From Escherichia phage SR02, in sequence record OQ870566.1: a stretch of DNA of 64,000 bases; one strand, given 5' to 3'. Positions 42,961 to 45,491 of this stretch are shown here, piece by piece (the stretch's first letter is position 1; each line of letters opens with the position of its first letter). The notes under the pieces were generated by a model. It saw nothing but the letters and a program-made list of their open reading frames with translations. It was not told where the DNA came from and ran no database searches. The position numbers were made by a program, and so were the translations under genes.

Positions 42961-43105
42961 GTGTAGGGTTGATCTACCTTTTTTAGGGAGTGCTCAAGGA
43001 AAGGCACTAGCCACTACGTTGGAGTGGTATCAGGACCAGTACACAGAATGTGCTGCTAATCACAATGGATTGTTAGAAGCCCTTAAAGAGCGTGGAATAG
43101 AGTGA
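42845..43105 (+). CDS. o-spanin-like lipoprotein (overlapped gene in +1 frame)
   Basis: Signal peptide with lipobox MSA-C. Confidence 0.4.
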   Translation: MRKLNQFFIMSALVMSMSACSTSDNSRQSMPLPTNLKAECRVDLPFLGSAQGKALATTLEWYQDQYTECAANHNGLLEALKERGIE

Positions 43106-43545
43106 TGGCTATTGTTTTCGAAGATAAAGCCAATGTGTTCACAGTGGACGCTCAAACAGTAACTTGCACAGTAAACCTAGTAGGTGTAATGGGTGCAGGA
43201 GTAGCCAAGGAGTATAAAAGAAGATACCCTGAAGCTTTTGAAAAGTATAAGGTTGCTTGCGACTCTGGATTCCAGATAGGACAACTTCTCCTACAGAGGT
43301 TGAATGATGGGAGACTAGGACTGTGTTTTCCAACTAAGAAGCATTGGAGAAATGGTTCTGAGGTAGAGTGGATAGAGCAAGGTTTACAAAAGCTATTACT
43401 TACCTACAAAGATAAGGGAATCACCTCTCTAGCCATAACACCTCTTGGTTGCGGCAATGGGGGACTAGATTACCAATCTCAGGTAAGACCTATAATGTTT
43501 AAATATCTAAATCAGATGGACATACCTGTCTATATCTGTTTATAA
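43105..43545 (+). CDS. macro domain protein (ADP-ribose binding/hydrolase fold)
   Basis: [15 protein letters not shown] and [13 protein letters not shown] motifs. Confidence 0.6.
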
Positions 43546-43564
43546 TAGCCAACAACAAGGAAAG

Positions 43565-44212
43565 ATGATGGCGAAGAAAACAACACCTACAAGATATCGA
43601 ATTCATGGAATTCCTATTAAATATATCTCAAACTATGAAGAGTTTTACAGAGTGAACTGGAAAGTGGTTCACAAGTTCTTCATGTACGATATCAGGGATT
43701 ATCATGAAGCAGAAGATGTGGCACAAGAAGTGCTCTTGAACGCTTGGAGATTTGTCTTCGCTAAGCAGGATGAGAGAGTCCTAGAGGATGAGAAAGACCA
43801 AGAGCATATGACTTATCGAGTCAAGAACATTATCTGGTCTATACGCTCAAATAGGCAGACTGTAGGGGACCGTCGTATCTACTCTATTCCAGAGGCTGAT
43901 ATGTTCCGTACTCCTGATATGGTGGACAGTCCTTTAGAGATTGCTATGGATAAGCAAGATTCTGTTGGTGACCCATTCATGGAATCTCGTATCTTCTATT
44001 TCTTCCAAGATTTAAGTGATACGATGGACACTCAGAAGTTAGCTAATATGTTCTCAATGATTTTCTTGGGTATTCCTCATGACCACATCCAGAAGACTAT
44101 TGGAATGTCACACGGAACTTTCTACCGTCGTTATGCGGAGTTAAAAGATCTGTATGAGTATGTGGTAGAGAAGCATTTCGATAAAGAAGAGTTTCAAGGG
44201 TTGATTACATGA
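43565..44212 (+). CDS. phage-encoded sigma-70-family (ECF-like) sigma factor
   Basis: Region 2-like [15 protein letters not shown] and region 4-like [21 protein letters not shown]. Confidence 0.7.
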
Positions 44213-44601
44213 AAGTGATAATCGCAGGAAGCCGGTCGATAGACTGGCATTCTTTTACTCAGATGTGGGCTTTGCTTCCAGAGGAAATCCCCAAGCTGAT
44301 TTCAGAAGTTGTGTCAGGTGGTGCTAGAGGGCCAGATCTTCACGGAGAGGTTGTCGCTAAGCACAACGATATACCCATCAAACGTTTCATTCCTTCTTGG
44401 AATACTCTCGGCAAAAAGGCTGGGATACTTCGAAACGTAGGCATGGGTGAGTATTCAGATGCAGTTATAGTCTTCTGGGATGGAGAGTCAAGAGGTTCTA
44501 TGCACATGTTTGAGTATATGAAGAGTAAGAATAAACCAGCAATCCTCCTTACTAAGAAAGGAGATAAAGCAGATATGGAAATCACTGGAGAGTGGGAATG
44601 A
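44209..44601 (+). CDS. SLOG-superfamily (DUF2493-like) Rossmannoid protein
   Basis: IIAGSRS...SGGARGPD...GILRN...FWDGESRGS. Confidence 0.6.
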
Positions 44602-45491
44602 ATGAAGAGGTAAAAGCTTTAAAGAAAGCTCTTGCAATTAAAATCAAACATTTAAATTTCGTCAGAGATGAGTTGGAGGAGCTATCCAACTTATCAGGAT
44701 ATGAGTTACAGAATGAGCTTGTAGAGTTTCAAATCAATATTGATGGCGGTAAATACGTAGAAACAACTAGAGCGATTTTACCTAAAGTTACTGGTAACAA
44801 AACTCCTCCAATAGACTACTCACATGACCACATGGAGCAATTAGAAATGGAATCTCAAGGCAATCCAGCACTGACCAATATGGTGGGAGGTTCTCACTAT
44901 AAGCCTTTAGTAGTAATTCTTAATGGGCCTCCGGGTTGTGGTAAAGATACGATAGCCAATGCTTGGGTCAATGCACATTCATACCATCACAATCATTTAA
45001 CCAAATCCTTCAAGGAGCCGATGTATAGAGTGGCTGCTGCTGCACTAGGAATGCCTCTAGAAAACTTCCTAGCACGCTATGAAGATCGTGAATGGAAAGA
45101 AAAATCTAGACCAGAGTGGGGAGGGAAGTCTGTAAGAGATTTGATGATTTCTACAAGTGAAGACTTCTTAAAACCTATGTTTGGCAACAATCATATGGGG
45201 AATCTCGCTGTAAAGAGCATCAAACAAGAGGAGTTAGGTCAGGATGACATTATTGTTTTTACTGACGGAGGTTTTGATGCAGAGGTACGAGAACTAGAAA
45301 AGAATTTCAATGTCCAAGTTGTCCAAGTGCTTAGGGATGGTTGTTCTTTCGATGGAGACTCTCGCTCGTACATTGAAGGGGAGCAGAGAAAAACATATCT
45401 GCTGTTTAATGACTCAACTATTGAATCAGCAGTGTCAGATTTAGATTGGATTATATCTCAAGCTCAGGATGATATTTATGGAAGACGTTAA
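44598..45491 (+). CDS. P-loop kinase (dNMP kinase-like) with N-terminal coiled-coil extension
   Basis: Walker A NGPPGCGKDT. Confidence 0.55.
   Translation: MNEEVKALKKALAIKIKHLNFVRDELEELSNLSGYELQNELVEFQINIDGGKYVETTRAILPKVTGNKTPPIDYSHDHMEQLEMESQGNPALTNMVGGSHYKPLVVILNGPPGCGKDTIANAWVNAHSYHHNHLTKSFKEPMYRVAAAALGMPLENFLARYEDREWKEKSRPEWGGKSVRDLMISTSEDFLKPMFGNNHMGNLAVKSIKQEELGQDDIIVFTDGGFDAEVRELEKNFNVQVVQVLRDGCSFDGDSRSYIEGEQRKTYLLFNDSTIESAVSDLDWIISQAQDDIYGRR

Follow-up and report, generated by a model that had tools for sequence, protein, structure and literature searches.

We analysed 64,000 nucleotides of Escherichia phage SR02 (OQ870566.1), referred to here as the window, which belongs to a phiEco32-like Kuravirus (Gordonclarkvirinae). 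Three genes lie around its phage sigma factor gene: a macrodomain (macro) gene at 43105-43545, a SLOG gene at 44209-44601 and a P-loop kinase gene at 44598-45491. With fair confidence, the locus is best explained as the centre of a phiEco32-like middle-gene operon holding three functionally separate genes. The macro gene product is most likely, as predicted from its sequence, an AdfM-like ADP-ribosyl-DNA glycohydrolase that would remove ADP-ribose from phage DNA. The SLOG protein is most likely a miniature DprA-like protein that would act on single-stranded DNA in replication or recombination, and the kinase domain is predicted to be a deoxynucleoside monophosphate (dNMP) kinase of the T5 Dnk type. 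The evidence observed consists of homology, folds, conserved catalytic residues, gene mosaicism and operon context, from which we infer the biochemical activities of the SR02 proteins.

The 3.9 kb surrounding the three genes are 94-95% identical at the DNA level to phiEco32, SU10, MN03 and Bas90, with conserved gene order. The macro, SLOG and kinase genes are the homologues of phiEco32 genes 37, 35 and 34, which carry the legacy annotations 'Appr-1-p processing enzyme family', 'GTP-binding domain' and 'dNMP kinase', respectively. The homologues of genes 37 and 35/34 flank the sigma factor gene (phiEco32 gene 36), and the homologue of gene 33, a 5'-3' exonuclease, comes next. All three open reading frames named in the initial annotation of this DNA, which was made from the sequence alone, are present at these coordinates on the + strand.

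That annotation had grouped the macro, SLOG and kinase genes as one candidate nucleotide-signalling or counter-defence module. In such a module, the SLOG protein would bind or destroy a defence second messenger, the kinase would modify the messenger and the macro protein would clear ADP-ribose derivatives. Relatives for comparison were taken from GenBank phage records; a sigma-anchored search of IMG/VR gave 4 loci only. The sigma factor was found in 100 phage records (tblastn). At an identity of at least 80%, the SLOG gene was present in 68 records, the macro gene in 41 (about 40% of the relatives), the P-loop kinase in 41 and an alternative DUF3310 allele of the kinase slot in 35. Moreover, the three genes vary independently among phages whose sigma factors are at least 98% identical: macro, SLOG and kinase occur together, SLOG occurs alone, some phages have neither macro nor SLOG, and the macro gene is found with either kinase type. 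This independent gain and loss contradicts the idea of a joint module. Indeed, co-inheritance was ruled out by the presence/absence matrix over 12 loci and by the record counts. Evidence from outside the locus also speaks against a module, since a Chaseviridae phage carries the macro gene alone, phiKZ AdfM has no SLOG or kinase neighbour, the SLOG family is closer to DprA than to ThsA or LOG, the kinase groups with T5 Dnk, and PADLOC gave no match for the SLOG protein or the kinase. A single module is thus highly improbable. The related suggestion of counter-defence against ADP-ribosylation is plausible only for the macro gene, a DarG2-type homologue of AdfM.

The macrodomain gene and its cassette

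The macro gene (43105-43545, + strand) encodes a stand-alone DarG2-type macrodomain of 146 residues, homologous to phiEco32 gp37 and identified by profile, PDB and phage-homologue matches. Its start codon (ATG, 43105) and the stop codon of the preceding o-spanin gene share bases (TGATG). The macro-domain call of the initial annotation was confirmed by Pfam Macro (PF01661), which matched residues 23-126 with an E-value of 1.5e-10 and 41.4 bits (cut-off 22). DarG was the best match in NCBIfam, PADLOC and PDB alike. The NCBIfam profile antitoxin_DarG (NF048014) matched at 2.7e-42 and the PADLOC DarG model at 2.4e-45, and the top PDB matches were the DarG macrodomains 5m3i of M. tuberculosis (8e-27) and 5m31/5m3e of T. 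aquaticus, with E-values of ~1e-25 to 1e-27, together with 7omu. These DarG matches are ~25-40 orders of magnitude stronger than those to any other macro family. Similarity to the macrodomain of DarG2, from the DarTG2 systems of M. tuberculosis and T. aquaticus, includes the FPTKKHWR and GNGGLD motifs. However, the NCBIfam match covers only the N-terminal ~144 of the 338 profile positions (5-144), and its score of 145 bits lies below the cut-off of 250 for a DarG equivalog. In SR02, there is neither a C-terminal DarT-binding domain nor an adjacent darT gene.

The nearest characterised protein is gp104 of phage phiKZ, which is 40.3% identical to the macro protein (tblastn of phage genomes). It was named AdfM (anti-DarT factor macro) in a 2026 Cell Rep study, acts on DarT2-modified DNA and is described only in chimalliviruses; the active-site residues are N23/K78 in the phiKZ protein and N22/K80 in T. 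aquaticus DarG (PMC13309987). Residues N24 and K78 of the SR02 macro protein align with N23 and K78 of AdfM, and both are invariant in the alignment. AdfM and its chimallivirus homologues resemble the SR02 protein in being stand-alone phage DarG2-type macrodomains of about 146-162 residues, with the same Asn/Lys pair and no DarT-binding domain. In contrast to AdfM, the SR02 gene belongs to a 77-kb podovirus type, forms a 462-bp cassette between the spanin and sigma genes, and has a function that is predicted here. Nuclear import is irrelevant to the SR02 macro protein, because this podovirus has no phage nucleus.

In the proposed mechanism, the host DarT2 toxin would ADP-ribosylate thymidines on single-stranded phage DNA, and the macrodomain enzyme would hydrolyse that ADP-ribose, allowing replication to continue. 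Since the macro protein lacks the C-terminal DarT-binding domain of DarG, reversal of the modification would be its only mode of action. It had been stated initially that nothing in the sequence fixes the substrate. Because the protein is of the DarG2 type and homologous to a tested anti-DarT2 enzyme, AdfM, its substrate can now be narrowed by homology, and is predicted to be thymidine-linked ADP-ribose on single-stranded DNA.

The macrodomain might instead be a general hydrolase of ADP-ribose derivatives, or might reverse ADP-ribosylation on protein or RNA instead of DNA. Macrodomains of the TARG1 class accept several substrates, and the legacy annotations of the macro homologues ('Appr-1-p processing enzyme family', 'phosphatase') are consistent with a broader activity, as are weak PDB matches, with E-values of about 0.03 for TARG1/OARD1 and about 0.9 for ADP-ribose 1''-phosphate phosphatase. 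However, these families are outscored by DarG by the margin given above, and AdfM itself works on DarT2-modified DNA (PMC13309987). A general or protein/RNA-directed hydrolase is thus unlikely. Some points nevertheless weigh against an activity on ADP-ribosylated DNA. An identity of 40% to AdfM is no guarantee of the same substrate, and macrodomains of the DarG/TARG1 type can also use protein-linked ADP-ribose. Moreover, DarTG was not among the systems tested in the BASEL study, the term being absent from that paper, and no paper linking Kuravirus with DarTG was found in the literature library searched.

The macro gene is distributed like an accessory gene, being present or missing among phages with 98-100% identical sigma factors. 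Comparison of the boundaries between macro-plus and macro-minus relatives delimited a cassette of 462 bp (approximately 43103-43567, + strand), a clean indel that carries TGATGGC at either end and separates the stop of the o-spanin gene from the start of the sigma gene. In phage DE15, an unrelated member of the Chaseviridae, an 80%-identical macro copy lies beside a single-stranded-DNA-binding protein (SSB) gene, and no sigma, SLOG or kinase gene is found near it. Close metagenomic homologues, of about 143-250 residues, mostly stand alone too.

The SLOG protein and its relatives

The SLOG gene (44209-44601, + strand) encodes a YAcAr/DUF2493 SLOG protein of 130 residues, the homologue of phiEco32 gp35, with a minimal DprA-like Rossmannoid domain. 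Its earlier recognition as a SLOG protein was borne out: GGARGPD is found at residue 37, GILRN at 72 and FWDG at 89, and a Rossmannoid SLOG fold was found. The protein matches phrog_289 at 5e-24, and the members of its family are short (about 115-130 residues) and carry YAcAr/DUF2493. All 65 aligned homologues matched YAcAr (E up to 0.01, best 9.6e-18), 44 of the 65 matched Pfam DprA and none matched Pfam LOG. When the family profile was compared with PDB, the only sequence-level matches below E 0.01 were DprA proteins; the alignment with S. pneumoniae and H. pylori DprA extends over GSR, SGGAxGxD and RN (E about 0.005). These are the three motifs best conserved between the family and DprA, and the SR02 protein retains them. 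Residues G7, R9, G37, A39, G41, D43, R75 and N76 are invariant in the family. By sequence and fold, the nearest relatives are DprA, ShosA and YpsA, the last being the top structural match.

The genomic surroundings of the family point to replication and recombination. In Vibrio phage ICP1, a DUF2493 domain is fused to the C-terminus of the SF1B helicase HelB; it belongs to the same family (37.5% identity over 81% of the query), but is part of a helicase there and a separate protein here (bioRxiv 10.1101/671271). In Klebsiella phages, the SLOG-family gene adjoins a DNA polymerase gene. Neighbours in metagenomic phages include a PDDEXK nuclease, a Sak4-like ATPase, DNA polymerase, endonuclease VII and a 5'-3' exonuclease; nothing could be learned from two further neighbourhoods. 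Together, the likeness to DprA and these contexts make it likelier that the protein acts on single-stranded DNA, in replication or recombination, than that it binds a messenger. For the same reasons, namely the nearness to DprA, the replication and recombination contexts and the ICP1 helicase fusion, the proposal that the SLOG protein counters defence through nucleotide messengers is not sustained.

DprA is a multi-domain protein that loads RecA. In comparison with DprA and ShosA, the SR02 protein is reduced to a core Rossmannoid domain of 130 residues, without SAM or winged-helix domains, and it is a YAcAr/DUF2493 protein rather than DprA proper. Both ShosA and DprA bind single-stranded DNA (PMC11961720). 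Other observations temper the assignment. The SR02 protein itself scored 26.6 bits on Pfam YAcAr (PF10686), just below the cut-off of 28.2, and did not match Pfam DprA (PF02481). Its isoelectric point is neutral, and that only the core domain is present is a further caveat for a role on single-stranded DNA. The gene is missing in SU7, Bas92 and O18-011.

Alternatively, the SLOG protein could metabolise or bind nucleotides, like LOG or nucleoside 2-deoxyribosyltransferase, and work with the adjacent dNMP kinase in salvage or base modification. However, Pfam LOG is matched by none of the homologues, whereas Pfam DprA is matched by 44 of the 65. The conservation of the motifs shared with DprA and the ICP1 helicase fusion of DUF2493 also speak against such an enzyme, and some relatives keep a kinase without the SLOG gene. 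A nucleotide enzyme is thus unlikely. The legacy label of 'GTP-binding protein' was rejected: no P-loop GTPase family was matched, and the one YlqF match was a chance alignment of 25 residues (E 0.06). A ShosA mimic or known defence component was also considered and kept only at low probability, as PADLOC gave no match and ShosA is no closer than DprA.

A further scheme would make the macro and SLOG proteins orphan antitoxin mimics, the macro protein copying DarG2 against DarTG2 and the miniature DprA replacing the unstable ShosA against ShosTA. The decay of ShosA that follows phage shut-off of host transcription triggers ShosTA. We consider this pairing very unlikely. If true, it would place an 'antitoxin replacement' pair next to the sigma factor, which together with gp79 shuts off host transcription.

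The kinase gene and exchange at its slot

The P-loop kinase call for 44598-45491 was upheld by the Walker A motif GPPGCGKD, by phrog_139 and by a nucleoside monophosphate (NMP) kinase fold. The P-loop NMP-kinase domain, of the T5 Dnk family and homologous to phiEco32 gp34, occupies residues 104-297 (44907-45491, + strand), as located by phrog_139, BLASTP and Foldseek. The SR02 kinase and T5 Dnk (T5.043) share PHROG 139 ('deoxynucleoside monophosphate kinase'), which they match at 3.1e-54 and 1.4e-51, respectively. In BLASTP, the two proteins are 34% identical over 65 residues in the Walker A region (E 6e-6), with low overall identity. Foldseek matches of the kinase model were adenylate kinases and T4 Dnk (1dek). 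The predicted enzyme would turn dNMPs into deoxynucleoside diphosphates for phage DNA synthesis. T5 Dnk differs from the SR02 protein in lacking its 103-residue N-terminal region. The T5 dnk and SR02 kinase genes both lie near Rz-like spanin genes; in T5, dnk is located at 21.8-22.5 kb, directly beside them (12767-14246 of locus L022).

The first 103 codons of the kinase gene (44598-44906, + strand) encode a helix, a beta-hairpin and a linker, followed by the initial ~15 residues of a DUF3310 domain (NPALTNMVGGSHYKP). The initial annotation had described this part as a coiled-coil extension of ~110 residues. This holds only in part, as the region was modelled, with a predicted local distance difference test score of about 74 or lower, as one helix at residues 3-33, a long beta-hairpin (35-67) and a disordered linker (70-89), and not as a coiled coil of that length. 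Residues 1-103 are 86% identical to residues 1-103 of a DUF3310 protein of 175 residues (P0143) that is found at this slot in locus L005. Between the SLOG and exonuclease genes, this slot takes four forms: the 297-residue fusion, a 198-residue P-loop kinase, a 175-residue protein that joins one of two types of N-terminus to DUF3310, and DUF3310 alone in a protein of 89 residues. This mosaicism was observed by comparing 44598-45491 of the window with loci L004, L005, L007, L009, L010 and L013-L016.

The junction is still readable. DUF3310 alleles have NPALxxMVGGSHYNP followed by DSKK, short P-loop kinases start with MSKP followed by LVVILNG, and the window has MVGGSHYKP followed by LVVILNG. Moreover, among 1.84 billion representatives, the N-terminal region was found outside these proteins in one cluster only, plus two weak matches in proteins of more than 1000 residues; a widespread adaptor domain was thus rejected. 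Because of the 86% identity to the DUF3310 allele, the readable junction and the near-absence of outside homologues, the N-terminal region is interpreted as a lineage-specific recombination relic. However, it is 94-98% identical among the fused forms and may have a function, which weighs against this interpretation.

DUF3310 is also part of the T7 nucleotide kinase gp1.7, which has PHROGs in common with the alternative allele of the sister phages. At the kinase slot, two unrelated nucleotide-kinase families therefore replace each other. Recombination would have swapped a P-loop kinase into a gene resembling T7 gp1.7, of whose DUF3310 domain the SR02 protein retains the first ~15 residues and has lost the rest. 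The N-terminus of the SR02 kinase has no pairwise similarity to that of gp1.7. HNH endonuclease genes occupy differing operon positions (46476-46877 in the window, 2541-2954 in L005 and about 6700-7060 in L009), and may drive local mosaicism.

Operon context and implications

The sigma factor, a gp36 homologue (43568-44212, + strand; phrog_1740, 6e-46), is about 99.5-100% identical to phiEco32 gp36, which has been characterised experimentally (PMC8948821, PMC12276001). It serves as the conserved anchor of this locus and stands outside any defence function. Its stop codon overlaps the SLOG start (ATGA), and the SLOG stop overlaps the kinase start. From the gp40 homologue through the exonuclease, all genes lie on the + strand and overlap or nearly abut. 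An exact gp36-holoenzyme promoter element, TAATGTATA, was found upstream of the gp40 homologue at 41738-41746 (+ strand), and the published consensus and positions of the phiEco32 middle promoter P40 match it (PMC8948821). This element probably drives the operon containing the macro, SLOG and kinase genes. Co-expression with replication genes would suit an enzyme repairing replicating DNA.

A second exact copy of the element lies at 41677-41685 on the - strand, ~50 bp from the + copy and diverging from it, with no - strand gene downstream. Further exact copies at 34312 (+), 51921 (-) and 57179 (-) stand where published promoters are expected. The gp40 homologue (41806-42552, 248 residues, phrog_6599) is the first gene past the P40 promoter element, and its C-terminal EDDNDSPF resembles the acidic tip of SSB proteins. 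Directly 3' of this gene, inside the operon and before the spanin, macro and sigma genes, there is a strong terminator-like hairpin (AGCCACC-TTCG-GGTGGCT, 42574-42591) followed by a T-run. A sigma-70-like promoter match (TGGACA-18-TATAAT, 11/12; 43517-43546, + strand), assigned by consensus match only, lies within the 3' end of the macro gene and closely precedes the sigma gene. The match is the same in phiEco32, is weaker in L005, and is missing from macro-minus phages because it belongs to the macro cassette.

Between 41000 and 47600, no Rfam match was obtained and ARAGORN detected no tRNA; the sole tRNA gene of the window is a tRNA-Arg gene (anticodon TCT) at 10049-10124. A metallophosphoesterase gene at 40765-41268 (phrog_547) is also present in Bas90 and unannotated at the matching place in phiEco32, and is another variable accessory gene. 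PDB-search matches to Hepatitis E ORF2 and to 'Pizza' designer proteins were low-complexity or chance matches and were ignored.

Altogether, these findings do not overturn current understanding. The kinase slot offers a tidy case of family replacement at one locus, with the recombination junction still legible. According to the BASEL authors, Gordonclarkvirinae resist nearly all of the defence and restriction systems that they tested; in view of a dCTP deaminase and a nucleotidyltransferase, they speculate about DNA modification (PMC11990801). If DNA modification is confirmed, dUMP would be of interest in the substrate range of the dNMP kinase. The macro gene may explain part of this broad resistance, and phages such as Bas90 and phiEco32 versus Bas92, Bas93 or IMEP8 provide natural macro-plus and macro-minus pairs for assaying sensitivity to DarTG2. 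The best label for the macro gene is that of an AdfM-like orphan DarG2 macrodomain in Kuraviruses, set beside routine replication and nucleotide genes. To date, nucleus-forming jumbo phages are the only ones in which counter-defence of the AdfM type has been demonstrated. A close AdfM homologue on a 462-bp cassette that is clean and mobile, carried by common E. coli podoviruses and by a Chaseviridae phage, would extend this counter-defence to ordinary coliphages.

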